64,000 nucleotides of DNA from Lytechinus pictus (taxonomy: Eukaryota). Both the position numbers and the translations under genes were made by a program. The DNA lies in assembly GCF_037042905.1 (NCBI RefSeq), contig NC_087252.1:4094001-4158000 (forward strand), in the 5' to 3' direction. The notes below the pieces were generated by a model that worked only from the letters and a program-made list of their open reading frames with translations, was not told where the DNA came from and searched no databases. Shown one piece after another: positions 17,401 to 46,224 of the stretch. The stretch's first letter is position 1; each line of letters starts with the position of its first letter.

Positions 17401-20276
17401 ACTTATAAGAAAAAGAAGAATGATTTCATGTAAAAAAAGGGAGGTGGGGATGTAACATCATCAGACAACCTAATGAATATTCACGACGACGTGCATATGT
17501 TTTCACAAAATATTGCTAAACTTTGAAATTCAATATCTTCGTTATTTCTTATCAGATTTTGATGAAAGTTTCAGCATTTCGCTCTGTAAATTTTACTCTT
17601 TTTTTTTTAAATATAAATATTTTCAGCCCAAGTATCCTTTTAACGATTTGGGAAAATCTCGTTTCATGAATAGCCCTGAAATCTTACAGTATTTTATACA
17701 TTCATCATGAGCTTGTTTTAATTTTTATTCATTCATTAATATAGCGTTTGGATGTCTAGAGGAAAAAAAGTCACAAAATTCATCGATTTACTATACAAAA
17801 GAAATCAAATAAATGATGGAAGAAATAAACAATACTATACAAAAGAAATCAAATAAATAGATGAATAAATATAAAATAAATAAATAATAATGATAATGAA
17901 ATAGAAATCAATACACGTAGAGTAAAAATGAATAATTTGATTGAAACAATAAACAGATAAGTATTCAATGCTATTCAAGATGAAGTTCAACTTACCATGG
18001 AGATCAAGTATGGTTGACTTCTGCCAGTTAAAGTCCGTTATCTCATGTCCGCTAACAAAACATGTCAGCAACTTGTTGTAATTCTCCTTACTTGCTGAAA
18101 ATGTGAACACGCTCCTTTTATCCCATAAGAGATGATGCGAAATATCGGGGTCCGTTTCCACTATGCCCAAAGTCTGAGTGATGTTTCCTATTTTCCAAGT
18201 GATGTGCTCCTCCGGGCTGGCCCCTATGGCTTCGCATGTCCCCTGGTACAGAAGAGTATTGTTCACCATGGAAGTCTCCAAGACCAGAGATACATTTGAT
18301 TGCACTTTAAAAAGAAAAGGGAATAAATAGTTCAAACAAACAATGGAGACAATAATGCATAATGTGAATGATTAAGGTGTATGACTTTATTGATCGCGAT
18401 TTTGTAATTGGCAATCTCATCACCAAAATCCTAACAAAATAAAAGAAAAAAATTGGGCACTTCAGAAATCGAGACCCTTTGGCTTAGAACAATGTGTGCT
18501 GAACAATGATTAAGCCGAACATGATGTCTGCAAACTCTACCCAATAAACCGAATCGACCCTATCCTGCGAGAAAAAACACAGTCTGACACAGTGCAGTCA
18601 AATGGAGGACCATATGCGAAGGTTTGATTCACAGTGTGGACCTCTCGACAGTGTGGATATTCACAGTGCATTTACACACTGAATTATAATGAAGATGTGA
18701 TTTACACTGAATATAATAATGTCACACCTTGGAGTGTGGACACATCGAAATGTGTGTAGTCACAGTGTACATAAACGCAGCAAACTATTCGAAAATGTGT
18801 TGCAAAGTGTTAAAATGCTCAAATATAACGGTATGAATTCACATAATGTTTCACACTGTGAACAGACTGAGAAACATTAGCTGTTGAAATGCTGAAATGT
18901 AACAGTGAGAATATGATTTCACGTCATGCATGTTTAACAATATGGGAAAACTGCGGAAAACGGTATTCTTTCCCCAAGGGAATTCTTACCTTCAACTGCG
19001 AAATTGATTGTGTTGCTGAGAACTGCCACAGAACCACACCTATACGAACCGCTGTCTTCCACCGTGGCGTTCTGGATAGTGAGGGTCGGTGGTCCTGTTC
19101 CATCCGACGATGGTACGAAGTTGTCAAATTTTTCATAAGGAGAAACCTTTAAAGAACCGATGAAAATGAAATTGTTGCCTTCCTTCCATACGAGCAAATC
19201 AGCAGTAATCGTACCATCTGTCTCACAAGTGAAGACGGCATTGCTGCCTTCCTTCACGATAGAAGGCCCTGTCATGGTCGCAGATTGTCCGTTCGTGGAC
19301 CCCGCTACCTATATGAAATTAAAAATAATAATCGTCTGTGAATTCACTTGACAGGATATAACAATGTGATTTTAATACAAATTTTGACACGTTTGAATCC
19401 CAAGTTATTATCAATAATAATTATATTAATGATGATAATAATAATAAAAAATACCCAATATCTAATACGCGATTTTCCAAAATGGCCCAAAGCGTTTACA
19501 ATTTCAGTTTACCTAATTCATACAAATACAGTAATATTACACAATTTCTTTAAAATAATTAAATTTCAAATCTTATACCTTTTTTTAAACAAGAGGAAGA
19601 AAAAAACAGTAATGAAAAAGTGATTTGACAGAACAACCTGTCACCAAACATTCCTATCTTTCTCTTTGAGAGAATGACATTTCATTGAAAAACAGAACCG
19701 CCCCCTTCAGAGCACTGGGAATGATTTTTTTTTTAATCTGGGGTGCTAATGTAGAGGTTTTCGCTACATAATCGGGTCAAATTTTGGTCCAGAAAAAATT
19801 GACAAAAAAGGTTTCATTACAAAATGAAGGTCATTTTAGTTACATTTTTCAAGTTTTACACATCTTCCAGAATACCTGGGGTGCTTCCTATAGAGAATAG
19901 TACACGCAGCACCCCAAGGAAATTCTTGGGGGTATGTCACATGCCCAACTTGTGTGTGTATGGGGTGGGGGTTCGCTTTTAATTTCTCAGGATTTTTACG
20001 GGTGGGGTCTACATGGCCTATTTCACGATTCGTCCCTCCCCCTCTTGCAGTCACGACCTCATAATGCCGCTGATGGGCAACGTTAACATGGTTCAAGCGT
20101 AAGAAAAATCTTCAGTCAGGGGAATATCAATCCTCAGAATAAATGCAAATATTCTTATTTTACAGACTCTGAGTAAAGACGGTTTGCTTCAATTCGGCTA
20201 CGACAAATAAACTTTAGCTTACCATAGTTAACAGGAGAATCCACCTTGTAATTTTTGCCGTCTGACTTAGATTCAT
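13877..20276 (-). CDS. Gene 1: 358-aa type I membrane Ig-superfamily protein (signal peptide, V-like, CD80-like C2, C2/I, TM, 6-aa tail); nectin/CADM-like architecture
   Basis: Exons 20276-20223, 19308-18990, 18304-17996, 16858-16592 and 14004-13877. All junctions are GT-AG with phases 0,1,1,1. The total is 1077 nt and open to TAA. Each Ig exon has paired Cys, domains 1-2 have the core Trp, and there is a hydrophobic TM. Confidence 0.85.
14058..14497. mobile_element. CACTC MITE copy containing a (GTA/GTC)n microsatellite
   Basis: Same internal TTTACCCAATATT repeats; CACTCTA...TTTAGTG ends, TA TSD; microsatellite at about 14263-14458. Confidence 0.7.
15513..15698. mobile_element. Harbinger-like MITE family (copies about 25290-25592, 34210-34390 and 54845-55025)
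   Basis: Shared arms AAGCTGTTCGTAAGTTAAGAG-GACTTTAAGAACGACTGG and their reverse complement. Confidence 0.8.
16592..16858 (-). CDS. Gene 1 coding exon 4, third Ig domain
   Basis: GPP...EGSNMTVSCD...GHPTP...VTCIAGNYLG. The exon is 267 nt, phase 1-1. Confidence 0.88.
16916..17072. mobile_element. MITE with CWG target (copies 25383-25538, about 55350-55488 and 58210-58330)
   Basis: CTG-GGGAGTGTTTCAT ... ATGAAACGCCCCC-CAG; near-identical copy at 25383. Confidence 0.8.
17996..18304 (-). CDS. Gene 1 coding exon 3, CD80-like C2 Ig domain
   Basis: GTCEAIGASPEEHITW...SVFTFSASKENYNKLLTCFV. The exon is 309 nt, phase 1-1. Confidence 0.88.
18990..19308 (-). CDS. Gene 1 coding exon 2, V/I-like Ig domain
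   Basis: AVFTC...LVWKE...LTIQNATVEDSGSYRC. The acceptor is TAG and the donor is G|GTAAGA. Confidence 0.9.
20223..20276 (-). CDS. Gene 1 coding exon 1 (MNLSQTAKITRWILLLTM, signal peptide)
   Basis: ATG at 20276, donor ATG|GTAAGC, upstream acceptor at 20288/20289. Phase 0 matches the next exon. Confidence 0.75.
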
Positions 20277-22327: not shown

Positions 22328-23077
22328 TATAATTATGTTAATGATGGGATAGTTCGGAGAGGGGTGGAATAGTCGTCGGCGACACGACATTTGCTCTGTC
22401 TAGATAAACGATGGATGTTGTCGTTCCCAAGCCAGTGCTCTGATGAAACGTTCCCAAAACCTTGCTTGTAGTCCGACCAATAGAGATAGAAATCAACAGA
22501 GCCAGCCCGTCTTCGCTGGAAGACCTAACGAAAGAGATGGAGACAGACATGCACAGAGAGGGAGAGAGAGAGAGAAGGGGAGAGAGGAAGATAGGATATG
22601 ACTAAGTCTACGGGTGAAAAGTTTGGGTAAAAATAAAGTACACCCCATTTTCACATTCTCTTTTAGAATTTTGTCGAATGAAAGTTAAAGTAGGGTTTTT
22701 TTTACGGTAGGCCCCTCCGCCTCAAACCAACCCCATCCGCACCCCAACAGAGTGAGGACGGGGCGGAGGGGGGGGGGAGATAAGAGCAACGTAACCTTTC
22801 TGAATGACGTAACAATACTTTGCGCTGCGTGACAATGCAAAACAATACACGCGCATCACAATGCGCGCTTCTTTGTAAACGCAGAATTTCGTAGATACTC
22901 CTCTGGCTGCCTAGCGCCTGGTAGCAAAATTAAACAAAGAAACAATAACTGAACCAACATGACAACATTTATTTTTTTATCAAAATAATTCAAATCATTT
23001 TAAGTCAGCAATTTTTAAAGAGAAAGCTAGGGATATGAAACACTTACTATGCTGAATTACACACATGTCAAAGAAAG

Positions 23078-23117: not shown

Positions 23118-26100
23118 GTATGGAAATTTTTTTCGATTGACATCTCTTGAGACTTGACTCGTGTTATTTGAATGATGGACATTGCCAGTAAAATCCTTCA
23201 TTATGGCGACCGTATAAGTTAGAGAGAAGAGCCCTAACGTTAGGCCATTATATAAGTTAGATCTATTTGTCGATTATAATACTTAATTGCGAGTTAGTGT
23301 ATACTTGACTCTAACGTTAGATCTAACGTTAAAACTAACAATTCGATCTAAACGTAACAAACAAGTAATTTCGATTATTTCGATTATTCATATTCTTCTG
23401 TGGAATTTGAAAACTGCCGTTTTGCATAATAATTATGAGTATGGTGAGACTACCACATGTATATCGACCACCTCTTTTGAAACCGACCACCTTGCGCGCG
23501 TTAGAATTATTGCGTATTACAAACGATACGCGCGGGAGAGTAGGCGCAGTGTCCATAGAAACGGTAAGAATCGATTTTACGAGAAAAAAAGAAGCAAAAA
23601 AAAGTAAAAATTTAGTAGAATTAATCAAAATTGTATTGACCAAACCCCGCTGAAAAACCAAGAAATCCGATAGGAAACGGCTTTAGAACAAATACCCGTC
23701 GTCAATCGTCGAATCATGAGCCGGAGCTCGCACTGGAAGTAGTGAGACGATCATTTAGCATGTTGACGTCATAGAACTGATTTGGAAGAATAAAAATATT
23801 TCGCCACCGCGACAAGACTCGGCCGTAAACTTAGTGTATCGCGGGTGGTCGGTTTCAAAAGACGGGTGCAAATGAGCAAATGTAAAATCGTCGTATTCGT
23901 TGTTCGTCGATATATACGCGGCTTGAATCAAAGTCGCCGAGCGAAACATGGGAATCTGATCTGCTAAATTTTCTGCACAAATGAGACGAAAACTGGGTAA
24001 AATTGATGAATATTTTCGCAGATATGATGCTTAGAAGATTAGGTGGTCGATAAGGGGTAGTTCCAACCATACCGGTAGTAATTCGGCGGGCATGACTCGA
24101 GTAGAACTGAACTTGAAGAATCATTTCTTAGAACAGATTCCCTATAGATCTGTTAGTGTCGGGGCCTTTCTCTTTGAATTTACATCTATTTTGCTCAAAA
24201 GCTCTTCTTTAGAAAGGGACGTCATGTTCTACTTGGGGGAACTATTAATACTTCTTATCCTATATGTTCATATCTAAGTTAGATATAGACTATATATTGT
24301 GATTTTGGCCCCAAGTTTGCGCATCTAAAGATTTAACATGAATTTCTTTTTATTTCACAAAAGCTATCACTTGATAAAGTTCCTTACATCATTATGAGTG
24401 AGTGTGCCAAATATCTCATAAAAAATTGAAAGAAATATATGATTTTCTTGGAAAAAATCTCGGGCAGTCATTTTCAGATTGAAGTCATGGTGCCCCATGT
24501 CTGAGCACCCATTCACTTTGCACGCGATTCGGGATTTTGATGAGAAAGGCTGCATTTTCAAGTTAGCGTGATGATGTTTTAAGAAATATTCAATCATAGA
24601 GAACATTAACCCCCCCCCCAAAAAAAAAAAAATATATATATTGTCGTTCCATTGTAGGCTTACAGCCAGCGTACTGTTTTTTTTTTTTTTTGGGGGGGGG
24701 GGGCTTGATAATTGCATCGCCAAAAATCTCTATAGAAGACGGGGGAAAATATTAACAGGAAAACAAATTAAATTTGAAAATGTGAAATCCCCCCCTCATA
24801 TTCATTATATCATTATGCCACTGCCATATACAAAACCATATAGACTATTCTGCAGTATAAAACAATTGTGGAAATCGCATATACGGGCCACACGAAATAG
24901 ATATTTTAGACTTATGGTTATCCTTTGCTTTCTTTTAGACATTTTGAATGTCAAGACCTAAAGTTTCGCTGATTCATTTTATACTTTCTCTCTCTTTTAT
25001 CCCTTCCAAAATCTAGTTGAACCATGGCCATCTTACCACGAAACATTCAAAGGGAAAAATCCGGACATCAATTCAACGCAGGTAAGTTAGACTAGGCATA
25101 ATGATACCAAGCTGCAGGACCTGCATGGGAACAGTTTTTGAAGAGGTGCTGGTTTGGAAAAAAAAAATGACAAGCAGGAAAAAGGGAATTCAATCCAAAA
25201 ATGAAGGTGATTGTGGTCTAAAATTAATTGACAAGTAAAAATTGACATTTTTTTCGAAAACGGGGGTGATTTGGTCAAATTAAAACATTTTAAGTTGAGA
25301 GCGACTTTAAGAACGACTGGTGATCCTTGTGGTAATGATATTTTCTTTGTCGATGGTTTAGCGCGTAGGAAAGGTTCACCTGGGGAGTGCTTCATCAACA
25401 TTTTAATCCGACAAGTTGTCAGATCTGACATCTTTCTTTGATGTTAATTGGCTGAGAGATACTGTTGCTATGGTAACTGTCGGATAAAATGGACTTGTCG
25501 GATAAAACGTCCGACAAGTCCTTTCATGAAACGCTCCCCAGGCGTTCTCTAAGCCGCTCTTTACTTACGAATAGCTTTATGAAACACCCACCTGATTTCC
25601 AGGATGTGCTGCTTATGTGTTGTATAAAATGATGCTTTAATTTCTATACTTTATTGTCTCGAAACGTCCTGTCTTTGGTTTGCGTTTTATCTAGAGATTT
25701 TCTTCATAAAAAGGTCATTCATCTGTCCATGGCTCATTGAGCACTATAGAGAGAGCATTTGCCGCATTATAAATCACATATTATTAATATTATAGGATTG
25801 GTTATTACAGAGGCATGAATTTTATAGACAAGACATTTTGTCTGACTGAAGAAGAAAGAAGAAAACATTTTTTTTAATAATCACTTGGGATGGTTGATTT
25901 TAAGGAGTTGGTGACGGGCGATTTAATTTAAACTTGCATGATATTTATTATATTGTGCACATTATTTTTCTTGTGTGTGGGTGTGTGTGTACAAATATAA
26001 TGTCATCTTTTCTGTAAGTGCACATAATTAAAAAAAAAAAAAAAAAGATAATTCATTATTTTCCTATCTTTGTGTGTGTGTGTACCAAGATAATTTCATC

Positions 26101-29100
26101 CTCTCTGTAAGTGCACAGAATAAAAAAAAAATGATTATTCATTATTTTTCTTATCTTTTTTGGTGGCAGGTAACGCCGAAAGGAGCATCCGGTAAGTTTG
26201 ATTCAGAACATAGGTGGGGGGTGCTAGAGCTATGATGATTATGATGATGATGGGGGTGATGGTGGTGTGTTGGTGGTGATAACAATGAGGATGATGGTGA
26301 TGATGATGATGATGATGATGATGATGGTGGTGATGATGATGGTGGTGATGATGATGATGATGGTGGTGATGATGATGATGATGATGATGAGATGATAATG
26401 ATGATGAGATGATGATGACGATATTGATAATGATGAAATGATGATGGTGATAATGATGATGAGATGATGATGAGATGATGATGCTGATGATGATAACAAT
26501 GATAACGATAATGATGATGAAGATGGATGATGGTTATGAGAAGGTGGAGAAGGAACAAAAAAGGAAGACGAAGAAAATAAAAAGACTAGAAATAAACAGA
26601 AGAGGAAGAACGAAGATAAGAAGAGGAAGAAGAAGGAGGAACAGAAAACAAAGAAGAAGAAGATAAGAAGAATAATTCAAAGAAGAATAAAGGTAAAGGA
26701 GAAGCAGGGGATAATTAGGGAATCGAAGGGGGTAGATGCACAAACCAGTCTAGGTTATAAACAGCATTACACCGAGGGTAAAAAAAAGAAAAAGTACGGA
26801 AAAGATTTTCAGGAATAAAAGGTTGGAAAATTAGGAAATACTTCGTTTAGCTCTTAATCTTGTTAATTGCTTCATTCTATCAACAGGCGAAAGAAAGCAA
26901 CTACCTAGGAAACCAGAGCATAGACCGGGGTCAGAAGCCAACAAAAATCAAGGCAAAACTACTAACCATGTGCCAATATCAAAGTCAACTCAAACAAGCT
27001 TTCATGATGCAACCAAACACCAAGCCGCTGGGAAGCAGGTAATTGGGAAGATATATTATATATATCACAAAATGTGCGATATATAGAATATGTATCACAA
27101 ATAATTAACCCTAAAAGGACTGGGGGCCGTGATGCCCCCCTCAACGCTTTGCGCAATATTTCCGAAACGCAAAAAAGATAGCGCCGCAAATTTGTTTTAC
27201 TTTTTTCTTTAAAGAATCGCGCAACGTTTGAGACCAAATTCGCGACATACGGCTATATATAGCATCGCGACGTCACATGACTTTTTAGAAGACAATGTCA
27301 TGCAGAAAATGGCTCATTTTAATACTTTGTGTACAAAGTCTATGGAAGATGAAATTCATAAAAGGGTGATTATTTTTTATTCTAATCGGTCTGCTTAATT
27401 AATTAAGGGTTTGATTTAGTTGTTAAATGGTCTCTAATAATTTTCATTGAGAGAAACAATGAAAAACAAAAGATGAAAAAACAAAGAAATACATAAGAAA
27501 TTCTAAAAACAAAGAAATACATAAGGAAAAACCAGCTTTCGCAATTTTTTCTTAGTGGAAACCCTTAAATTAGATTACAAAGATGACTTTTGGAATAAAA
27601 AGAGAATGAATTTGGGTGCTAAATATGCAAATAACGTTTTTCACGAATAAATTTGCATATTTTATTCATAATAAATTAAAAAAAATGATTATTTTACGAA
27701 AATTTTGTAAACAGGCTTGTAGTTTATGTGGTAAAGAATGTGCGTGCCAAATTTCAGCGCGATCGCGCGAACTGCGGCCGAGATCAGAAGGGGGCAACAT
27801 GCCCCCCCCCCCAACCCCCCGTCCTCACATCCTACATCTCACGTCCTACGTCTCACATAGCCCAGTCCTTTTAGGGTTGATATATATCAAAAAGCACTTA
27901 CTGATTTTAAACCGTTTGGTTATAAGCATGAGCATTATCGCGTAGTATAATTCTCATTTTCTATGAGCAAAGTGCGAATGCCTGAGGCGCCAAGAGGCAC
28001 GAATTTTTGTCCATGAGATAGGAGGAAAGTGGTGGATATGGAATTGAGGGGGAAAGGGAAGGGTAGGATAGAGGGGTGGAGATATGGAATGGGCAACGGG
28101 CGGAAAGGATAATCTCATATAGTATTATTACGCTCTATATATGTGGAGTTGAAATATTCATGTAATTTTTTAATGTTAGATTAAGCTGTTTTTATAACAT
28201 GCATATCCTTTATACGCGTGCAAATTGTACGTAATTCATCGAATTGGCTCTGAAGTGCAATATTATTCATAAAACATTTTTAATGTCAAATCTTTTCAAA
28301 TTTGATAAGCTTTAATTTCCCCGAGGACCAACAGTTATAACAGCGTTACAACTTAAACATGTATGCACAAGATGCTTATATTTTAGCATTACACCTCATC
28401 GAGGAAGATCACCAGTGCTCGATAGAAAATTCTCTGAACGATTAAGACTTGCCTTTCATGGTCTAGTGGTCATGACTCTCGCCTTTCAAACAGAGGGGTC
28501 GGGTTCGAATCCTAGCCTTGGCATGTTTTCTTTCAGCAATAAATTTATCCAAACTGTGGTGCACTCGACCCAGGTGAGGTGAATGGGTGCCGGGCAGGAT
28601 TAATTCCTTGAATGCACTGAGCGCCGGTGATGGTAGCTGGAGCTAAAGCTGGGGTAATAATAGCAGTGTTTTGTATCCTCAGGCAAAAAAAAAACACGCT
28701 ATATAAATCCAGCTATTGTTATGATTATCATTATAATTATTATTGTCTCTGTAGGATGGAACAAAAAAGTTGGGAACAAGTCGTCTTATCCAAGTCACCG
28801 AAGCAGACTTCACAGCTGATTTCATATCTACTGAATATGAGACTCGTCCTGACAAAGCGATTGAAAATTCCGAAAGGCCACTCTCTCCACTTAACCCAGG
28901 TCAGGCAAGGGCACCAGCTGACGACCATGTAGAATTAGAATCAATCGCTGAGGAAGTTGTCAAAAACACTCCTGAGAAGGATGGTGACCTGGAGGTTGAA
29001 GACCTTGAGAAAGATGAATGTAAGATGGAAGAACTGCCTTCAAAAGAAATCGAAGATGGCGCTGTTGAACCCGCACAGGAGAGAGTCGATCATGTTGACC

Positions 29101-32100
29101 CTCAGATTGGCCAAGCGGAGAAAGTTAATAGCAAGGATGCCAATTGTTGCAAATCACAAGAACTTGAGGAGGGAAAAGAGAAGAGGAATCAGAGTGAAAG
29201 TGAAATGAAATCTGACGTAATAGAAGACGAAGAGCTTGAACTCATGATAGCAGATATAATGTCAGACACCGCAGATGTTGCAAAGCATGAACCCCATGTT
29301 CCATTGAATTGTGCATCAGAACAAATAAAAGCCATTGAACCTGTGGAGGGTCTGAATGAACGGTACAGTGAGCACTTGGCATCACTGCCTAAGCCAATAG
29401 ACACAGATACAACGGAAGTCATGGAGAAGGATAAAGATGCAGAGAAACCTGCGGAAGTTCATGAAAGATGCAGTGTCTGTCTGGCAACTGCACCTCCTCC
29501 AATGTCAACAGAGGGGGGAAAGGTCATGGGTGAAATTACCGATGCGTCACTAGACGTAACAACAGAAACTGCAGGTAAGACCACCAAGGGGACAGAAGCA
29601 AAAGGCGACTTACATGAAGCATGTAGTGTATGTCTTGCAACCGCACCACCACCTTTTTCTACTGAAGCGATTCATCCAGAGACAGATGCAAGACAGAAAG
29701 AACATATTGAGGCTTTATCAAGTGATATAGGAGAAGAAAATGAACATCAGAAAACAGAAATGCATGAAACATGCAGTGTGTGTTTGGCAACTGCAGCAGT
29801 TACTGCACCACCTTCAACAGAAACAACTAATGTAAACGAAACAAAGATAGAACAAACAGAGCTTGTTGAAGTTCCTTTGAGTGATAAAACAGGAGGAAAT
29901 ACTACACAGAAGGAAAGCAATGACCAAGAAGAAGTACATGAAGTATGTAGTGTCTGTCTTGCAACGGTTCCTCCTACAAATATCCTTGAAGAAGAACATG
30001 CTGAATCAACAGGCAAGACGGAAGCTGCTGAGGTTTCATCATCATGGACAGCAGCAGACACTGAACAAAAGGAATGTAATGAAAAAGAAGCCGAAGAATT
30101 GCATGAAACATGCAGTGTTTGTTTGGCAACTGCTCCCGAGACAACAGTTGCTGAAGAAGAAAGCACTGAAAGAACAGAGAAAACAGAAGACAGTGAATCT
30201 TCCTCAGCAAATACCCACAGGAAAGACACTGCAGCGAATCCTGAAACAGAGACGGAAGAAAACCCAGAAAAGCAAGGTGAAATGAAAGTGACTGGAAATC
30301 TAGTTGATTCTACAAGCACAACAGATACAGATACCAGTAAGGTCACTCAGGGGATAGGCAATGAGATACATGAAGCATGCAGTGTATGTATGGCAACAAC
30401 ACCTCCCACTGTTCCTGCTGTTGACATCGCGGACCCTTCCAAGGGTGATGCAGAGGAGATAGAAGTAGGAGGAGTACATAAAACATGCTTGGCAAGTGAA
30501 CCTTCTGAAAAACAAGAGGGAGAATTAAACGCCGCAAGAAGCATTTGTTCAGCCACTGACATGGCTTCATCTGTGAATGCAGGGGACGTTCCCGAAGAGA
30601 AGGTGATAAGTCCCTTGGGAACTGAGCAATCGCCTGAAGTTACAGCATCAGAAAATGATAGAGAGAACAATAGTAAGGGTAAAGGAGAAGTACATGAAAC
30701 ATGTAGTGTTTGTTTGGCCACAGGATCATCATCAGTCTCTGCAACAGAAGGGACTGGCAAGACTACCAATACCAACGCTATTTCAACAGAGGATATTCCA
30801 AAAAGTATTAAATCTCCCCCTGACACCACTCATGACACCACAGAGTGCATTACTGATAAATTAAATACAAATGAACCCCTTCCACAAGAGATTACAGAAG
30901 TAAACACTGCAAAGTCAGATGGAACGGCTACTCTAATTGAGGAATGCGACGAACCAGTGGCCAAGGTGTCTTCACAAAATGCAACAGAAGAAAACCCAGC
31001 AGAGTCAACTAAAGAAACTATCAGAGAGAGAACCAAATCATCAACACTGGTAGATGGAGAAGACAGTACAGAGGCAACCGGCCCTCCATCCACTAAAGAA
31101 GATACGGCACAGGCCATTGAGCCTGTAACTGCTGTGAAAGCAGATACTGCAATGGAAGTGGAACCTCCTATCACTGAAACAGGAGGAGACGAATCTCCAG
31201 CCACTGCACCTGAGGGAAATCCGGAGGACAACAAAGTGGCAAAAACTGCTCCAACTGAAGACACAGCAGTTCCTGTTGAATGTCCACCCATTACTACAAA
31301 GTGCACTGAAGAGACAAATGAAACAGAAATACATGCTGAAACAGTACTTAAAGACAATGTAAAGGAAGAAGTTCATCAGACATGCAGTGTCTGTTTGGCA
31401 ACCAATCCTCAGAAGGAAGTTACAGAAGAGGCACAGAATGCACAGCAGGCTGTTGAAATCAGAGATGCTGCGGAAGTACATGAAGCATGCAGTGTCTGTT
31501 TAGCCACTGAACCTATGACACCAGACACACAAGAAGAACAAACACAAGAAAAAATCAAAGAAGTTAAAGGAGAAGAAATTCATGAAACTTGCAGTGTATG
31601 TCTGGCAGCTGAAAGTCAAACAACTCAAGAAGTGGCTACCACGGACAAAGCTAGTGAAGAACGAGTGCATGAAATATGCAGTGTTTGTATGGCTACAGTG
31701 ACTGCTCCATCAGTACCGGTTGAATCAGGTCCTACAGAGCAAGTTTCCAAAGCCCATGAGGTAATTCCTCCGGTATTGGTAGAAGATGAAAATCAAACTT
31801 CAGAGACAGTTATTGAGGTTCATTACATAGAAGACATACATGATACATGTAGTGTCTGTATAGCCACTGGCTCTTCTGCTCCTGAGGAAAGTAAGAACAG
31901 CAGCAATATTAGCAAAGTTAACAAAGTTCAACAAGCTCAGGATGATATGCCAGAACCCCCAGAGCACAGCACAAAAGGAAATGCTGTAAATGCGCACGAG
32001 ATACAAGATGACAATGCCCCACTCTCATCTTCTCCCGAGGTAGCTTCATCAACAAACCAAGTCGAAAGTGATGACTTTGCAGAAGGTAGTGACCAACCTA

Positions 32101-32252
32101 ATATTCCTGTATCTACAAGTCCAACAAAGGATATAAGTAAAGAAACAGAAGATCACGATACAGAAGCTGAAACTATGGAGACTGACAAGAAAAGAGATGA
32201 TGTTGAGAACAGGGCCACAGAATCAAGCATCCCAGAAACTCCTACAGAGTAA
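23078..32252 (+). CDS. Gene 2: 1258-aa uncharacterised acidic, low-complexity protein with N-terminal MGCCVS acylation motif and 12 HExCSVC[LMI]A repeats
   Basis: Exons 23078-23117, 25017-25081, 26170-26191, 26887-27038 and 28755-32252. All junctions are GT-AG with phases 1,0,1,0, giving one open frame: MGCCVSSGTKDVKVEPWPSYHETFKGKNPDINSTQVTPKGASGERKQ...KQDGTKKLGTSRL... Confidence 0.8.
25017..25081 (+). CDS. Gene 2 exon 2
   Basis: Long pyrimidine tract plus TAG acceptor; donor CAG|GTAAGT. Confidence 0.75.
26170..26191 (+). CDS. Gene 2 micro-exon 3 (22 nt, VTPKGAS-G)
   Basis: T-rich tract plus CAG acceptor, donor CCG|GTAAGT. It is needed to bridge phase 0 to phase 1. Confidence 0.65.
26232..26710. 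repeat. (GAT/GGT)n microsatellite grading into a (GAA)-rich purine tract
   Basis: Direct reading. Confidence 0.9.
26887..27038 (+). CDS. Gene 2 exon 4
   Basis: CAACAG acceptor and CAG|GTAATT donor; open frame GERKQLPRKPEHRPG...AAGKQ. Confidence 0.75.
27109..27876. mobile_element. piggyBac-like non-autonomous element
   Basis: TTAA-CCCTAAAAGGACTGGG ... CCCAGTCCTTTTAGGG-TTGA; a related fragment lies at about 43290-43760. Confidence 0.8.
28451..28745 (+). mobile_element. tRNA(Glu-like)-derived SINE with (TTA)-like tail
   Basis: A box TGGTCTAGTGG at 28459, CTTTCAA loop, B box GGTTCGAATCC at 28502, core GCACTCGACCCAGGTGAGGTGAATGGGT. Confidence 0.82.
28755..32252 (+). CDS. Gene 2 giant exon 5 (1165 aa, E/T-rich with HExCSVC repeats)
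   Basis: 3.5-kb ORF; acceptor TCTCTGTAG at 28754 is in frame with the ORF. Confidence 0.92.
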   Translation, partial: DGTKKLGTSRLIQVTEADFTADFISTEYETRPDKAIENSERPLSPLNPGQARAPADDHVELESIAEEVVKNTPEKDGDLEVEDLEKDECKMEELPSKEIEDGAVEPAQERVDHVDPQIGQAEKVNSKDANCCKSQELEEGKEKRNQSESEMKSDVIEDEELELMIADIMSDTADVAKHEPHVPLNCASEQIKAIEPVEGLNERYSEHLASLPKPIDTDTTEVMEKDKDAEKPAEVHERCSVCLATAPPPMSTEGGKVMGEITDASLDVTTETAGKTTKGTEAKGDLHEACSVCLATAPPPFSTEAIHPETDARQKEHIEALSSDIGEENEHQKTEMHETCSVCLATAAVTAPPSTETTNVNETKIEQTELVEVPLSDKTGGNTTQKESNDQEEVHEVCSVCLATVPPTNILEEEHAESTGKTEAAEVSSSWTAADTEQKECNEKEAEELHETCSVCLATAPETTVAEEESTERTEKTEDSESSSANTHRKDTAANPETETEENPEKQGEMKVTGNLVDSTSTTDTDTSKVTQGIGNEIHEACSVCMATTPPTVPAVDIADPSKGDAEEIEVGGVHKTCLASEPSEKQEGELNAARSICSATDMASSVNAGDVPEEKVISPLGTEQSPEVTASENDRENNSKGKGEVHETCSVCLATGSSSVSATEGTGKTTNTNAISTEDIPKSIKSPPDTTHDTTECITDKLNTNEPLPQEITEVNTAKSDGTATLIEECDEPVAKVSSQNATEENPAESTKETIRERTKSSTLVDGEDSTEATGPPSTKEDTAQAIEPVTAVKADTAMEVEPPITETGGDESPATAPEGNPEDNKVAKTAPTEDTAVPVECPPITTKCTEETNETEIHAETVLKDNVKEEVHQTCSVCLATNPQKEVTEEAQNAQQAVEIRDAAEVHEACSVCLATEPMTPDTQEEQTQEKIKEVKGEEIHETCSVCLAAESQTTQEVATTDKASEERVHEICSVCMATVTAPSVPVESGPTEQVSKAHEVIPPVLVEDENQTSETVIEVHYIEDIHDTCSVCIATGSSAPEESKNSSNISKVNKVQQAQDDMPEPPEHSTKGNAVNAHEIQDDNAPLSSSPEVASSTNQVESDDFAEGSDQPNIPVSTSPTKDISKETEDHDTEAETMETDKKRDDVENRATESSIPETPTE

Positions 32253-32775
32253 GGAATCCAGAGTGTTCCTGTAGAACTTCCAAGAAATTCTGAAGATGCT
32301 AATGTTGCAGATGTTGAGGAAAATACTGTGAGAGCAGAAACTACTTCTGATGTTGGAGAAACCAGAGGGCCTGAAAGCTCAGAACCATTGACTGCAGAAC
32401 AATCCTTAGATCTACAAGCTATAAAAGTCAGTGCCTGATATACTGCTAAAGAAAATGACCGGTGTGGAGGAGGAATATCATTGAAAATTTACAACTAGTA
32501 TGTCCAATATAGTTTGCATATTCACTTGTTTTTCAATGAAAGATCAAAGTAATAATATTTTATAAAATTATGAACAATCAATACTTTTCAATCATGATAT
32601 AAATAAACCTAAATTCAAACAAAAATAATCACTTTAATTTGATATTTTTATGTTTCCTTTTAAATTAGTAATTTAAAGACAATAAAATATAATTAAAAAT
32701 CATGTAATCAGTAAATGGGCTTACTAGTAATGAATCTCTTATAACAATCTTGCAAAATAAGTAATAAGTAAGCAA

Positions 32776-37258: not shown

Positions 37259-37749
37259 TTATCTCCCTGAATGATAATTCCTTCGGTAGGAATGTCCATC
37301 ATCATAACCTCTCCTGGAATCGTTCCTTCCGCTTGACCGATCTCGATTCCTTCCCTGTCTGTCCTGGTCATAACTTCCACCTCTGCGTCCATCCAGATCG
37401 GACACCCTACAATCCTCGGAGTACCGTCCCCTATCTCTGGATCTTTGGTCCAACGAACTGTCCCTTCCACGATAATCAGAGCCCTCATCGCGTCCATAAC
37501 TCCGCTGCCGATTGAAATCGCGACTTCCATCGTTATCAAAACGTGGACTGTAATCCCTATCGGACCTTCCTTGGTTGTTGTCTGCATATCGGTCTGGGTT
37601 ACGGGGTGGAGGGCCACGGTTATCAGAAGCTCTTCTGTCAGGCGTATCGTAGTTATTTTGAGGTGAGGATGGTTGGTGTGAAGGGCTTTGATCTTTTCTG
37701 TTTGATAATGGTAAGCCTTGCATCGCAGCTCCTTGAGAAAATGGTGTTC
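37259..37749 (-). CDS. RBM7: RBM7 exon 3 (R/D/S/G-rich tail)
   Basis: TATTTCAG acceptor; phase 1 leads to GTPFSQGAAMQGLP...RRNYHSGR*. Confidence 0.85.
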
Positions 37750-40700
37750 CTGAAATACAAGCAATACCAACAGGCTACATTAGACATTTCTTTGTAATGA
37801 TTGAACAATATTATCAATCAAACATAATGAAAACATCAAAAGTTCAAAGATAAAACTAACAACATACCTGTATATAATTAGAATTTTGGGGCAATATTTT
37901 GAATTAAATTTTTGTTCACATTTTGTTTATATTGAGTCTTTCTAATCTGATCCCAAATTCATCAAATAAATAATCTTATTCTCTATACTAAATTGAGGTA
38001 AAGACTGGTGGATGTGATACACCTGTTTAGTGCAAAATTGCAAGAACTGAATTGTGTATTAACAAGAACAGTGATGGGTGTTAGTTTTAGTGTAAGGTGT
38101 TGAGAGCAAACAACACCAGCACTGGACACCTAACTTAAAATCTCAATAATTATGTTCATAAGCATTCCCACAAAATCCTACCAAAAAATGCATACTGTAT
38201 GACCAAAACACTGGGAATTGGCCAACACCACACTGTTCTCAGCCGGATTCATAACACTGAACACTTTCATTAAAACTAATCGACCTAAATCTTTAAACCG
38301 TTTTCTTCACTCAAATTTAATCAAAACTCTGGTCTAAACTGTGGTTTAACTATGGATAGCCAATTGTGAAATACAGGTTTGATATATCAGCTTATCTGTT
38401 CCTGAGACCATCTATAACTGTCTCGAAATAATAAATGAATTATTTTTTTTGGTCATAATAGCATAATGAAAGAGCACAATGAACATAAGAAAAATACAAT
38501 GTTGGCAAAATTTTGACATTTTGGCTTCCCGTAATTTTAGCAAAGAGTTAGACCACGGCCTATAAAGGTAAACCAGACTTCAGAACACTAGCCTATGACC
38601 AGTATTCTGAAGTCTGGTTTAACTTAGACCGTGGTCTAACTCTGTGCTAAAATTATGGGAAGCCGAAATGTCAAAATTTTGCTTAACGGTACATTGTATG
38701 TTCACTGTTGTCAAGATTCTAGTTCTCGAATGGTGAAGACAACTATCTTTATTTCCCCTTGCCAGACAGTTAAGAATGATTTGAGAGCCAAATGAGCCAA
38801 TACATTGAACCGTTGACATAAAGAGATTTTATTCTACAATTGGCTATCCATAGTCAAATCACAACTTTAAACCAGAGATTGAATTAAACCATAGTTCAGG
38901 ATGGTTACACTTCGTAATTCCGAAGGTTCGTAATTCCGAAACACGCAAATTGCCTATACCTCGATGTTCGTTAATCCGAAAACGTAAAAGGGTTCGTTAA
39001 TCCGAACATTTGTGGCGTTATTCCGAAGGTTCATTATTCCGAAGGTTCGATAATCCGAAAACGAATTAAGGTTTGATGTTCCGAAGGTTCGTTAATCCGA
39101 AAACGAAATAAGGTTCATTGTTCCGAAGGTTCGTTTATCCGAAAATGAAATAAGTATCATTGTTCCGAAGGTTCGTTAGTCCGAAAACGAAATAAGGTTA
39201 GTTAATCATTTAGTTTTCGGACAAACAAACATTCGGAATTGCGAACCTCATTTCTTTTTCGGATTAACGAACCTTCGGAATTACGAACCTCACTTTGTTT
39301 TCGGACTAACGAACCTTCGGAATTACGAACCTCATTTCGTTTTCGGACTAACGAACCTTCGGAATAACGAACCTTCGGAATATCCGAACCTTCGGAATAA
39401 CGAAGCTTCGGAATTACGAATGTATGCGGTTCAGGATATGGGCCTTTGAGTGTGACTGCATTATTACCTGGTGGGAGACCTATTCCTTGCATAGACTGCA
39501 TGTTGCCTGGAAGTCCCATGGGTGATCCTGTAGAAAGATGCGTTACCATCAGCGGGACAGTCCCACCTTGAAAGCCCTGCCCCATCCGAGCCATCCCACC
39601 TGGCGCTGAAGCAGACCGGTGAACGGGGGGTGGCAGCCTACCACCTGCCCCGCCCTGCATCGGAGGAGTCCCAAGCAGCCCCTTCCCACCTCCACCACCG
39701 CCATGGTATCCTGGACTCTGCATTGGAGGCGTGGCTGGGATCATGTGCTGGGGTGTGGATTGGTGCTTGCTGCCGCTGCGGAACTGAAGTCGAAGAGCAC
39801 GGTTAAAGAGTGAAAGTCCCCCCATGAGTTGCATTGAGTAGGGTACTGAGACATCGTGCTTGAATTTCACAAAGGCAAAACTCTTCTGGTTTCCTTCCTT
39901 GTCCTTGGCAATGTTGACATCCTGGAGAGGGCCAGCCTAGAAAAAAAAATGCATGGGTCGTTATCTTTTATATCACCCAATCATAATGAAATGCTCTCTT
40001 CTTGGAAAAAGACTGATTTGAGTTACTAGAGCGGAATTGCATTTAAAGGGGTACTCTGGGATGGTAGTATTTATACATAAATAATATAATAGAGTAAAAT
40101 TCTCCCTACAAATATATTAAGCTATTATTTCCAATCTACAGCATTACCAATTCGAATGAAAGAAGTGGTGATAAAGTGAACAAAAAGTGTGTCGCCTCTT
40201 GGGCTAGTCCAAGGAAAGGTCACCCTAGAAGACAAAATGTGAATGCTATTTTAAGCAGTTATCTTTGGTGGGGTAAGAAAGTCGAAATATTGAATTCTAA
40301 AACTTGATGAAAATGGAAAAATATTAAAAAATTAAAAACAGTAGAAATACATTAAAAATTCAGATTAAAACCATGAAAAAAACAAAAAAAATATTGAAAT
40401 GGCTAATTTCCTTTTCAGCCATATTTTATGTCTTAATAGAACATTTTAAAAGAAAACAAAACCTCTTTTGTTATTTTTAAATTTGAAAATATATGAATTT
40501 CTAAAATTATGGGGAAAATTGTGTACGTTCTCTATGGGGACATAATGTCCCATACGTAACATGCCATTGTTTAATTAGAGTCTGTAATTTGAGGATTTTG
40601 CCTTTTGACATGAAACTTGCCTTAGATATACATACAAGAGTATTTTGACTTTTACCACACTTAGTAAAAAAGTTGTCAAATAAAATACTTTAAGAGAATT

Positions 40701-43700
40701 CTCAAATTGTTTCTAAAATGTCAAGGTCAGATGTCACCATTTTTACATGATTATTCTTCTCCTAGATATCAACCATCATTGTGGTATTAAAGGTATAAAT
40801 CAAAGTCATTTAACATTATATCCTACATAGAGTAAATCCTGTATAGTGATTGGTTAAGTAGCATCATGTGACCTAATATATTTCAACTATGATGTTGCGT
40901 GACGTCAGACCTTGATATATTTTTGGATATATCGAGGTCTGACGTCATTATTTCGCAAAACTGGATATCAAGCTAAACTCTCGGGCGCACCGGCCAGTGC
41001 GCTCTCTCTCCCAGGCAAGTCCAGCGATGCGTCGGCGCAGGCACTAATCTGCGTTCCGCTGAGCGCGGTGGCTCGGAGAAAAGTAGGTAATTCAACTCAA
41101 GTAACCGGACTTTGCAAGCTCAACACATAGATTTTGGTTGTAAATTATCAAAAGTAGGATATAAAACAAATATACCAGGCGTTTCATTCGAAAGCATAGT
41201 GGGAATTATTAATCCTCGGTTGGACTGGCAAAACTACTATATTTCCCTCGGGGCTTCGCCCCTCGGGAAAAATAGTAATTGCCAGACCAACCTCGGATAA
41301 ATAATTCCACTATACTTTCTCAAAGCCTGATATATTTGTTTACTATTTTTCAGGTCATTAAAGCCTCTGAAATGTTCCATATGTAATGCGCGTAAATTCT
41401 TGGACTTGCCCAATTATTATTCAATTCAATTTCCATTCAATAAAAACACAAGATACAATATCAGAGAAATACATGATTGGTAACAAAGCAATTAAATATA
41501 CATAAATACAAAATGAAATTTGGGAGACTGCAAAAGGCCGAAAGGTCTTGACGAGACAGACCCCGAGTGCCATCATGGCAATACATAGGCCTACATTGGC
41601 ATAGGTTAAAATGATGACATGAAAAAAAAAAAAAAAAAAAAAACAAACAGACACAACCCAAAAATTTCAAACAGATCCGTCATAAAGCTTGTGCCTTCCA
41701 GGACTCTTTCTTTGTATCAACCATACTCGACTGGAATAAACTCCTTGCAGATCTATAGACGTTAGTTAACCCATTATCTAGACCAAAAGCTTCGGTCTCT
41801 GTTATATTGGTTGTTCCGCTAAACTCCGTTGGCTCCACTCACAAAAGCTTCGGTCTCTGTTATATTGGTTGTTCCGCTGAACTCCGTTGGCTCCACTCAC
41901 AAAAGCTTCGGTCTCTGTTATATTGGTTGTTCCGCTGAACTCTGAAACACTGGCTCCACTCACCGATTGCAGAGACCGAAGTTCTAACTCGTTCTGTACA
42001 GGGATCAGGGACTCAATGGTCATATATGTTTATTAAGTTCGGATAAACCAGGGAAGTGGGAGTTGCACGACAGCCGAAGTAAGTCACCGTTTTTTTTCCT
42101 TTAAAGTTTATTTTTTCCCGTTTTGGTGCATTTCAGGCAAAAACGGACATGACGGAATAATAATCTTTATTTTGGACCAGTTCTTATATATTTTTATGAA
42201 ATAAAATTAAAGACAAAAATCAATGAGCTCCGTCGGGGGGATTTTGCATCGTTAACCCTCTAATTATGCTACATGTAATGCCTTGGCGGCTGCACGATCG
42301 CGAGCTGTCTCATCTGTGTATGAGGAGAAACAAAAAATAATAAAAATGTTTAAAAACTCCTCGAAACAGACGGCTGCCAGCGCCAGCTGTCTACCCTAGT
42401 AGTAGTACCCATTATCTTACTTTGGACTCCTTCCAAAATAATTAAATATCAACACTGCACTTCGTTGAGCCACTCCACACGCACTCAACTTACATGCCGC
42501 CGCGCACAGAAAAATCAAGCCATAGATTGATAGAAGTCGTGTGTTGTGGACACCAGAAGTGGGGTCGCAGCACGCGCGACCCAATAGTTAGAAATCCACT
42601 GCCAAACGCGGTTCATGGTGCGAGGTTAGAATACTAACCTCGCAATACTTGTGACTTTTTTTAGTTGTGTGAGTGCTCCACACGTAGCGACTCACCGTCT
42701 CACGACACGTGCTCTTAAGTTCAACTGTTCAACTTCAAGAATCAAGTTAGCTTGATGTGCCAATCGTAGTATTTGCTGACAGAACGATAGGGGAGACCGG
42801 GGTTAGTTGGAACATTTTTGACAAAAATAGCGGTAAAATCCAAATAGACTTTACTCGAGAAACAATCAGTATATCAGCTTGAAGCATATATCGCAGGGCT
42901 TCAAATGTACCCCATAAAAATTTTAACTCTATTATGGTTACTGAAAAAATCCACCTTTAACAAGACCATCGCAAACGTTCCAACTTACCCCCATATCGGG
43001 GTAAGTTGGAACATGGTATGGGGTAAGTTGGAACACTGCATGGTCAATTAAGAATTATACTAAAACTACTTAATTTGTAATATTACATGGTTTTAGCCTA
43101 TTTGCTTTATCTTATTCAAGTTCAAAATATTAAAGTGTGGGTTCATTGAACTTTATGTTTCCTTTTATACAGCCACTCACACAAGCAGACTGTGTAGTAG
43201 AATTCTGAATATTTGGGTGCATCTGAGTTTACATACAATTATTAAGTGTACTATCAGCAATTTCATGTACTTCTGCATCAAATTTATGAGACAAAAATTA
43301 ATTGTTTATATTGTTTTCATAATTAATTATGCATATAAGCATATAAAATTTTCCCTAAATTTGTTTTTTTTTATAAAGTTTTTACCTTTAACTCTATATA
43401 TCAAGCTAGTAGAATGCTAATTTTTGGTGAGAAAAATTAATCTATTTGAACCAGCAAAAGTAAAAAAATTAATCATACATTTATGACTTTTGGTTGAAAA
43501 ACACAATTTGCATTGACCTTGTACATGGAATCACGTTTTTGAACAATTTTGGGTCCGAACATGCACATACAATTTGTTGCGTAATTTTGAAATCGCGCAC
43601 ACAGGCATTGCAAATTTGGTCTCAAATGATGCGCAAGACTTGGAAGTAAAAAGTCAGTGAGCAGTGTAGTAAAAAATTTTGTGCGACAGCGTAGTGACGA

Positions 43701-44719
43701 AATTTCTCGAGGGGGGGGGGGGCTCAAATTGACACCCCCCCCCATTTTGATAAGGGTTAATATTGCATTAGGTGCCTACAATAGGCCTTAAATGCACACT
43801 CAGACCTAACTGATAATCAAAACAAGCATGGTATACAATACATGTTCAAAAGAGTGTGAAATACTTTATATATTTTTTTCATCAAATCCAATGTTTTTAT
43901 TCATAATTATGTTTGGGGTAAGTTGGAACATGTTCCAACTAGCCCCTTCAACTTTGTTCCAACTAACCCCGGAGGCCCATTTGACGTTTATAAGCTTACA
44001 GCACAAAAAAGGGACTTCACCATGGCATATCAATAACCTCATTTTGTAGCTTGGTACAACTACAAGTGTCTATTATAACCCCAAACTGGCCAACTTGATC
44101 TATAAACTTCTCCGAGATAATCGAACATTTCTGAACAAGAAAAAAATTACTCAGAAGGTAAAAAAACAAAAATTTGTTTCTAACTTCACCAGGCTTGTTG
44201 CATATGTGTTGTCTGTAATATGGTGGATGGCTGTTGATAATGACAATAAATTGAGGAATGAGGGCAGTATTGCAGAAATTTATTTAAAGACGTTAGAGAA
44301 AATTACAATGTTTCAACTTACCCCATGTTCCAACTAACCCTGGTCTCCCCTACAGATAATCCATTTCCAACCCATCCTAGGCCATGGCTCTGAGTCTGAC
44401 TCTCTGGATCTATTCGTAAACACATCTACCTGGGCGAGGTTAGACGACTAACCTCGCACTCGCATTATCGGGGATAATGCTCCTGTATGATTCCAATGAC
44501 TGCCACACGAACTTGTGATATCCCTATTGAAATTATGTGCAAAAGAATTATATATATATATGCAGGCGGTACCGGTAATGTACCGGTAGGTTTGGCACCC
44601 AAAAGGCAAAACTCGTTCAAGTTGTAACTCACCTGTAAAAACAGCTCAAACAGTATTTCTTCTGTTACCCTTGGATCAAGATTCCCAACCCATAATGTTC
44701 TATCAGCCTGTTCAGTCAT
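37259..44719 (-). CDS. RBM7: Gene 3: RNA-binding protein 7 (RBM7/RBM11 family, NEXT-complex subunit), 348 aa
   Basis: Exons 44719-44633, 39936-39468 and 37749-37259 (phases 0,1). RRM ADRTLWVGNLDPRVTEEILFELFLQ|AGPL...FAFVKFKHDVSVPYSMQLMGGLSLFNRALRLQFRSGS matches the RBM7/11 RRM signature. Confidence 0.9.
38310..39444. mobile_element. Two inverted Harbinger-like MITE copies (38310-38593 and 38597-39444) in RBM7 intron 2
   Basis: Both match the 13557-13866 element and are separated by only TAT. Confidence 0.8.
38903..39428. mobile_element. Nested repeat-rich DNA transposon with 9-bp TSD (Merlin- or Mutator-like)
   Basis: GTTCAGGAT duplicated at 38894 and 39429. The arms are tandem TTCCGAAGGTTCG-type units in opposite orientations. 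Confidence 0.8.
39468..39936 (-). CDS. RBM7: RBM7 exon 2 (rest of RRM plus P/G/M/Q-rich region)
   Basis: TTTTTTCTAG acceptor; AGPLQDVNIAKDKEGNQKSFAFV...GLPP; donor CAG|GTAATA. Confidence 0.9.
41784..41961. repeat. 58-bp tandem repeat, three copies
   Basis: Units start at 41784, 41842 and 41900 (CAAAAGCTTCGGTCTCTGTTATATTGG...). Confidence 0.9.
42790..44350. mobile_element. TA-flanked non-autonomous DNA transposon in RBM7 intron 1
   Basis: TA-GGGGAGACCGGGGTTAGTTGGAACA ... TGTTCCAACTAACCCTGGTCTCCCC-TA, with repeated internal GGGGTAAGTTGGAACA motifs. Confidence 0.85.
44633..44719 (-). CDS. RBM7: RBM7 exon 1
   Basis: MTEQADRTLWVGNLDPRVTEEILFELFLQ; donor CAG|GTGAGT. Confidence 0.92.
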
Positions 44720-46224
44720 TTTGAAATCGGCAAGGCCAAAAAAGAAAAAGACCAGCAGCAAAATTAAAAACCTATTATTAATACACTCTGCGAACGCGAG
44801 TCTGGAGTAGAAATATTATGAGACGCCAAGTGTTCATTTCACTTTTCTGTACTTACTTACTGTAGGCTTGAGTTGAGTGCCTGTTCATCAATCGTACTAT
44901 CTCCTCTGGTGGTAGTACAGGCATGGTATTAAAAAATATATATACTTAAAACGAGAAAGGACTGTCAGAATTAGTGTGTACATGTATGCTAAAAACCGTG
45001 GAAAAACAAAGACAATATCGCCTTATAGAGCAAGTCATAATTCTTTGACCAGTGTCTATCCAGGCGATTTTTTTTCTGCTCAAATTTCCATGCATTTTTT
45101 TTGTACACCCATACAACCGAAAAAAAAAACACAATTAAATGCCGGGATTAAATGCAACAGCCGATTCTGTAACAAAATCTGTCAAACCAAAGATATTGTG
45201 TAAGGAATTTGTTTATTTTTATTTTTACGTATTTGTTATAATAATCCATATTGCACTCGCGTAGGCTGAAGCAGAATTTAGCCTTGGGGCCATATGGAGT
45301 CGAACGATCGGACCCCCAAAATTTCCAAAACGAAGAAAAAAACAAAGCAAATTACAGGAAAAAGTGTGAAATATGAAAGTATCTCTGAATACTAGGCCTA
45401 TTTCAAAATATATAACAAAATAGAAAGTGCCCGATCCTCCAATTAATAGTTTTAAAGCAGAACACAGTGTGTGTTAAAACACAAATCTAATACTGACGAC
45501 CATTTCTATTTTCATAAAAAAATCAAACTAAAGAAAGTTGGGAGATGAAGCCTATGTCCCAACCGGCTGACAGAAATATTTGGGGGAAAAATTGGGGGAG
45601 AGATAGAGGGGAAAACTAAAACATAAATTGGGGAAAAGCCGGGGGAAAAGGGAAATTGTGACCCACACCCCAAACCAACAATAGGCCTCAGTAACCGGGG
45701 AAGGTTTTGTACAGCAAATATAATCATTCAGTCTTTAAAGGGGAAAATTATATCTGAAAGAATAAGTCGTTTCTTCAATATACTTTCTGTTAAAATTTTG
45801 AAGTTGTAAAGTTGAATGAAAGACAATTGGATACCAAGATTAACTGTTTGACACCATGTTTTGCGGACTGCATGGAAGTTTCTCTGAGATTACATCACAT
45901 CACAGCATGCTTCAGTAAACCCCGCAGAACAAACTTTGTTTTCTCCTTCATTTTGTTCAAGCTCTCACTCGATCATGTGTTTCTGTTTTAAATAAAGTAA
46001 GCCTATATACGTGGGTGTTAATAAACTTTGAAGCTAATTAGGAGTTCTTTTTGAAGATCTTAAAATACATTGTTAGGTTCAACTTTTTTTTTCTTCATAA
46101 TTTTTCATATCCCACTTTGAGTGCTCATTATATTGTGACAGGAGACTGGGAACGATCTTTGAAGATCGAGTGAGTGCTGGTTTTTAAAGAAAAAATTAGA
46201 AAAACAGTGGTTTTCACTCCTTAA

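Follow-up and report, generated by a model that had tools for sequence, protein, structure and literature searches.

A twelve-copy His-Cys-Cys micro-repeat in a predicted acidic, disordered sea urchin protein as a candidate zinc half-site

Introduction

Two described systems come closest to the repeat reported here. In the zinc hook of Rad50, a lone CXXC with valine in third place makes a zinc site only together with a second copy, this valine stabilizes the complex, and a four-residue CXXC peptide already forms Zn(peptide)2 with a logK12 of 14.93 (accessible text of PMC5093744). In the zinc clasp of Lck with CD4 or CD8, short unstructured cysteine pairs fold around a shared zinc (accessible text of PMC12198760). 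According to the accessible part of PMC9569753, only a small number of interprotein zinc sites have received detailed study.

The window analysed here, that is, the whole stretch of 64,000 nucleotides of Lytechinus pictus DNA, contains twelve copies of a His-Cys-Cys motif in one open frame. As in the Rad50 hook, each copy has a CXXC with a hydrophobic third residue (C-S-V-C in 12/12 copies), and the valine of its C-x-V-C stands at the position of the hook's valine. However, the Rad50 hook occurs once per chain, as a beta-hairpin between coiled coils, whereas here 12 units lie on one chain in an acidic, disordered setting; the hook has Pro-Val between its cysteines, whereas the repeat has Ser-Val and an extra invariant His. 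The Lck clasp differs in being a heterodimer at the membrane with CxCP on the co-receptor and one site per chain, as far as PMC12198760 describes it in its accessible text.

Results

The twelve motif starts listed in a first-pass annotation of this DNA were all confirmed, with every His codon at its listed position and in a single plus-strand frame (28755-32252, 1165 aa). The intact copies, all on the plus strand, read HERCSVCLAT (copy 1, 29460-29489), HEACSVCLAT (copy 2, 29613-29642), HETCSVCLAT (copy 3, 29763-29792), HEVCSVCLAT (copy 4, 29937-29966), HETCSVCLAT (copy 5, 30102-30131), HEACSVCMAT (copy 6, 30369-30398), HETCSVCLAT (copy 7, 30693-30722), HQTCSVCLAT (copy 8, 31374-31403), HEACSVCLAT (copy 9, 31479-31508), HETCSVCLAA (copy 10, 31581-31610), HEICSVCMAT (copy 11, 31668-31697) and HDTCSVCIAT (copy 12, 31839-31868). 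The unit consensus is E-[VILM]-H-[EQD]-x-C-S-V-C-[LMI]-A-T. H, C, S, V, C and A are identical in 12/12 copies, which bears out the invariance that had been claimed for H, C-S-V-C and A, and T follows A in 11/12. Position -1 is V, I, L or M in all 12 copies, and position -2 is E in nine, D in two (E/D in 11/12), R in one and Cys in none. The His-to-His spacings are, in order, 51, 50, 58, 55, 89, 108, 227, 35, 34, 29 and 57 aa, and the linkers between copies span 19-217 aa. On a helical wheel, H0, C3 and C6 share one face with positions -1 and 7, while Ser4, Val5, Ala8 and Thr9 point away from the His and Cys residues.

Three degenerate copies, also noted previously, were found on the same strand. 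In one, the His and both Cys are changed (29352-29384; 20/36 nt matching the consensus); another has lost three codons (30474-30497); in the third, the His and the first Cys are changed (30525-30557; 22/36 nt). Decay of these copies thus removes several key residues at once. A profile built from the 12 copies scored these same intact copies at 44.5-55.3 bits and the degenerate ones at no more than 13.2 bits, with nothing in the gap between.

Shuffling the protein 10,000 times gave no H..C..C occurrence in 9741 shuffles, one in 256 and two in three, compared with the 12 observed. In the 812-Mb genome, the exact motif pattern matched 12 times, always in this exon, and the reversed control did not match at all; when any Ser codon was allowed and Thr was required, the 11 matches again lay only in this exon. 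The micro-repeat is real, is under selection and matches no family in the databases searched.

The purifying selection that had been proposed on a motif of about ten residues was supported by comparison among the copies. Over 66 pairs, pN/pS was 0.17 for the ten codons of the motif (pS 0.53, pN 0.09), compared with 0.87-1.10 in four flanking blocks. The comparison is limited in that the flanks are unaligned and saturated, the pairs lack independence, and conservation itself was used to define the motif. The third codon positions are spread over C5 A3 T3 G1 for Val, A8 C3 T1 for Ala and T6 A3 C2 G1 for Thr, whereas the first and second positions of these codons are fixed or nearly so, suggesting that the constraint acts mainly on the protein and not on a DNA site. 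The synonymous variation described earlier held for Cys1, Val, Leu, Ala and Thr but failed for His (CAT), Ser (AGT) and Cys2 (TGT), each of which uses a single codon in 12/12 copies. The CpG observed/expected ratio of the frame is 0.34, and outside the motif, before a G, His is CAT in 8/10 cases and Ser is AGT in 10 and AGC in none. CpG avoidance therefore fits the fixity of the His and Ser codons but not that of Cys2. Cys codons outside the motif are TGT in six cases and TGC in five; the 12/12 TGT at Cys2 is to be read with the common ancestry of the copies in mind. Similarity at p<0.01 persists in three of 66 linker pairs, all of them neighbours (1-2, 2-3 and 4-5), which is modest evidence that the array originated by tandem duplication of a unit of about 50 aa.

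The repeat lies in a large last coding exon of 1165 codons plus TAA (28755-32252, plus strand), which begins at a splice acceptor and consists of single-copy DNA; a transposon origin was rejected on the latter ground. In 200 DNA shuffles, the longest open frame was 187 aa. Two exons were predicted upstream on the same strand: a first coding exon (25017-25081) with a pyrimidine-rich acceptor, a GTAAGT donor and phase 1, in which the start ATG at 25024 stands in an ACCATGG (Kozak) context with an in-frame TGA six bases upstream, and a second (26887-27038) entered in phase 1 and left in phase 0. Both join the last exon in phase, giving a predicted product of 1235 aa. A CpG-rich stretch (23400-24200; CpG observed/expected 1.59 compared with 0.71 in the window) may hold the promoter and a non-coding first exon, with a donor-like ACG/GTAAG after 23563, and two AATAAA signals lie in an AT-rich 3' region (32602-32686, plus strand). 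From these signals, the gene is very probably spliced as modelled and expressed.

An RBM7-like gene lies tail-to-tail with the repeat gene (37259-44815, minus strand); one of its exons is 100% identical to an RBM7-like protein of Lytechinus pictus and 72% identical to a Strongylocentrotus purpuratus protein. The window also contains a multi-exon gene with many Ig I-set domains (54269-62496, plus strand), Ig-domain exons (16512-19308, minus strand) and, upstream of the latter, an isolated fragment of a fibrinogen C-terminal domain (22336-22524, minus strand; E 8.9e-16).

The host protein had been described as an acidic, disordered chain, and this was upheld by a predicted pI of 4.4, by 22% E+D in the last exon and by a charge-hydropathy value of 0.406 for the product, on the disordered side of the boundary (0.460). 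The last exon encodes 8% K+R and eight aromatic residues, and its 1165-aa frame has 35 Cys (3.0%). The product has no signal peptide, hydrophobic leader or membrane segment, and a reducing compartment is therefore likely. Two short, amphipathic-looking segments before the repeats (28929-28976 and 29223-29282, plus strand) bear a loose resemblance to kinase-anchoring helices. AlphaFold modelled five units with a mean pLDDT of 38.3 and low-confidence helices, and one unit with a mean pLDDT of 61.4; in the latter model pLDDT peaks at the motif, where S-V-C-L forms a short helix, also of low confidence. A Foldseek search with the low-confidence 42-aa model gave no match and is uninformative; on the whole, structure prediction adds little here.

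Two candidate LC8-type sites, S-K-S-T-Q-T (26979-26996) and S-R-L-I-Q-V (28779-28796), both on the plus strand, were recognised with a consensus taken from the accessible text of PMC3078936. They fit [DS][KR]x[TVI]Q[TV], lie in the first 85 residues and are 28 residues apart. At least two such sites anywhere in the protein were found in five of 20,000 shuffles, with a pattern that had been loosened after the sequence was seen: position -3 was opened to R, which the phage-selected consensus includes (PMC3078936, accessible text), and +2 was dropped. The strict consensus [D/S]-K-x-[T/V/I]-Q-[T/V]-[D/E] had no match in the protein, and the lone KxTQT has a p of 0.045. The 12 repeats themselves do not conform to the LC8 consensus, averaging 2.17 of six positions in the best register. 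The genome has 19 dynein light chain loci matching LC8 (L062-L080, on C2, C6, C10 and C11), mostly clustered on C2 and C11; 18 of the 19 are uninterrupted open frames that cover almost all of the family model, suggesting that LC8 has expanded as single-exon coding genes.

The sequence remains coding-like beyond the TAA. The 61 in-frame codons that follow it, up to a TGA (32253-32440, plus strand), have a codon score of 32.4, within the range of the frame's own blocks (9.8-46.3) and far from that of UTR (below -40), and none of 2000 shuffles scored as high. Because these codons score like the frame, the TAA, which overlaps a donor-like GTAAG at 32249, is probably due to a recent nonsense mutation or to an assembly error, or belongs to a (possibly alternative) splice donor. 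All 12 motif copies precede it.

Searches for relatives agree with the earlier remark that the family was not recognised: nothing was matched in Pfam, the PDB, the protein collections or the literature searched. A word-based search with the whole frame found none among 7,998 candidates (640-2039 aa), HMMER run over all of 1.84 billion representatives with the 817-aa repeat region found none at E<=0.001, and the 12-copy profile found none at E<=10 among 7,997 word-based candidates (75-2000 aa). The ESM Atlas gave no usable match, an exact look-up of six internal-Met forms of the unspliced frame found none, and the whole frame had no match in Pfam nor the repeat in a PDB profile search. Single units gave weak, single-member Pfam matches to DUF6767 (E 0.064) and Anti-TRAP (E 0.074), which were judged to be due to chance. 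In a pattern scan of metagenomes other than viral contigs, 44 loci had a single match apiece; at least ten of the 44 read as the motif, in each case as one copy inside a frame of 28-111 aa. The exact motif strings are absent from the literature searched (main texts outside subscription journals), and no paper in that search joins three of the four features of disorder, CxxC, repeat and intermolecular zinc.

In simulations of sensitivity, the protein itself scored 1705 bits in the full scan and versions of it with 70% of positions mutated passed in 10/10 cases; with the unit profile, proteins with at least two copies were found in 10/10 cases if they reached scoring. As a control, a collection of 5.8 billion sequences was found to hold RBM7 from two Lytechinus species, S. 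purpuratus, two Diadema species and a brittle star. The repeat protein itself is absent from collections that hold these orthologues of its neighbour, even for its own genus, and is thus either unannotated in them or filtered from them. Since the protein itself is missing, the blanks mean no more than that a similar annotated protein was out of reach, and they say nothing of lineage specificity.

Membership of known metal-binding families was examined in turn. In composition the chain is disordered, it has no Pfam match and neither of the two low-confidence models has a strand, and membership of the Rad50 hook family was rejected; the Lck-CD4/CD8 clasp was rejected because the repeat has no CxC. 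H-x2-C-x2-C-L equals the central stretch of RING, IBR and LIM fingers. These fingers need eight ligands within about 50-60 residues, whereas the repeat has three ligands per unit with units 29-227 aa apart and no Pfam or PDB match, and RING, IBR, PHD and LIM were rejected. The RING-HC signature has a Cys two residues before the His, where the repeat has E, D or R; the Cys is present in an RBR-type RING exon of this genome (L087), which reads C-x-H-x-F-C-x-x-C-L. The c-type heme motif is CxxCH, whereas in the repeat the His precedes the cysteines and L, M or I follows Cys2, so that both parts of an earlier remark, namely that one unit, with its three ligands, is too short for a classical zinc finger and is not the heme motif, were supported. 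The ZAS anti-sigma zinc motif is H-x3-C-x2-C, whereas the spacing here is H-x2-C in 12/12 copies. Metallothioneins are small and very Cys-rich, whereas the repeat protein exceeds 1100 aa with 3.0% Cys. Among the papers listed for the H-x2-C-x2-C spacing, most deal with LIM and RING.

Two possible sources of the motif were also rejected. An origin from a RING gene was set aside because 126 loose genomic matches (31 in the control) included no donor gene among the 30 that were read, and an origin from a dispersed repeat because only the searched core was common (14-18 of 30 nt) and the flanks were at background. A near-identical dispersed repeat of a few hundred bases (L088, L097 and L098) accounts for 17 of the 100 loose-pattern matches listed; its match falls within a frame of 12 codons and, apart from the core, has no relationship to the motif.

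Discussion

The reading that we prefer, with a probability of roughly 0.4, is that the unit may be an incomplete zinc site that is completed by a second unit in the manner of a hook, on chains paired by LC8. The repeat would be a micro-module of a sea urchin protein of about 130 kDa that is predicted to be intracellular, acidic and disordered, and it would have spread by internal tandem duplication of a unit of about 50 aa whose linkers drifted afterwards. Structural zinc takes four ligands. Each copy would supply only His, Cys and Cys, too few for a closed tetrahedral site, and one unit would therefore be incomplete; a second copy could complete the site, through either Cys4 or mixed His/Cys ligation, much as two proteins do in a zinc hook, with folding only upon binding. 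Client chains bound by LC8 lie next to each other in pairs (accessible text of PMC12803091), and the N-terminal LC8-type sites might hold two chains in parallel and so align matching copies. The outcome would be a ladder or cross-linked network that depends on zinc.

The components of this reading differ in strength. All three possible ligands are invariant in 12/12 copies, and that the motif binds zinc seems slightly more probable than the converse. That units bridge and that LC8 pairs the chains is doubtful, and the complete picture of an undescribed module, in which ten-residue His-Cys-Cys half-sites in twelve copies zip LC8-paired chains into a zinc-bridged ladder or gel with a length and stiffness governed by free zinc, is rather unlikely as a whole. 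A Cys4 hook would leave the His without a need, and there is no Rad50-like coiled coil or hairpin, the AlphaFold helices being of low confidence. The fixed Cys2 codon, which CpG avoidance does not explain, the recent-looking stop that cuts the frame and the absence of the protein from collections also speak against this reading.

The main alternative, which we regard as somewhat improbable, is a short linear motif that binds no metal and offers a folded partner twelve docking sites. Seven of ten motif positions are fixed or nearly so, and four of these, the invariant Ser4, Val5 and Ala8 and the near-invariant Thr9, are non-ligands, which a docking surface fits equally well as zinc; however, two invariant Cys and a His are atypical of a plain docking motif. 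One possible partner is LC8 itself, bound in a non-canonical S-V-C-L-A-T register to give a multivalent rod like that of KANK1. The protein has two candidate LC8-type sites, KANK1 uses the weak anchors VMA, IGC and VNT (PMC12803091, accessible text), and anchors without Gln have been described (PMC12057147, accessible text). However, besides the poor consensus fit of the best register, the His lies at -8, outside the 5-7 residues N-terminal of the anchor (PMC12057147, accessible text), and the weak KANK1 sites need linkers of 3-4 residues (PMC12803091, accessible text), whereas those here are of 19-217 aa.

Metal-free thiol chemistry, in the form of a regulated disulfide network, a redox switch or S-acylation, is quite unlikely. 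Dithiols usually take the form of CxxC within a short helix, the single-unit model suggests such a helix at S-V-C-L, and twelve dithiols could cross-link many chains. However, the protein lacks a signal peptide, no thioredoxin fold was found in Pfam and PDB profile searches, and the His is left without an explanation. For S-acylation in particular, the copies lie in net negative sequence (-1 to -9 over 15 residues on each side), which is poor for membrane anchoring.

It is very unlikely that the locus is silent or decaying, or conserved at the DNA or RNA level, with no functional motif protein today. The product is absent from annotated collections, a stop interrupts coding-like sequence and three codons are invariant at all three positions. 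On the other hand, the frame runs for 3.5 kb without a stop or shift (at most 187 aa in the 200 shuffles), the Kozak ATG, the phase-matched splice sites, the CpG island and the poly(A) signals are intact, the stop comes after all 12 copies, the single-copy exon shows no transposon, and the third positions of Val, Ala and Thr are scattered.

There is equally little probability that each unit holds its own metal, with Glu or water as fourth ligand, or an Fe-S cluster, in a protein that serves as a metal store or sensor: the near-invariant Glu at -2 and +1 could complete His-Cys-Cys in cis and the chain is highly acidic, but the invariant S, V and A would be unexplained and a frame of 1165 aa with 35 Cys could store very little metal for its size next to metallothioneins, making a pure metal buffer at 3% Cys unlikely.

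Should the half-site reading be true, the locus would represent a multivalent zinc hook in a gene seemingly missed by current annotation. The hook and the clasp are single sites, and a natural array of twelve would show zinc switching a disordered chain into a scaffold and would offer a minimal peptide for zinc-controlled assembly. Even if the repeat docks without metal, it would be a short motif not listed before, for which a single gene supplies twelve natural replicates and three decayed controls, and the host is a tractable developmental model.

Compared with the multivalent LC8 clients ASCIZ, KANK1 and GKAP, the predicted protein is likewise a long disordered chain with several short motifs, and it has two candidate LC8-type sites of its own; it differs in that the 12 repeats lack a Gln/TQT anchor. 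Disordered scaffolds that carry short motifs in repeated form are known in general, while the motif itself matched nothing searched. By analogy, the repeat may function like the Rad50 hook or the Lck clasp while belonging to neither.
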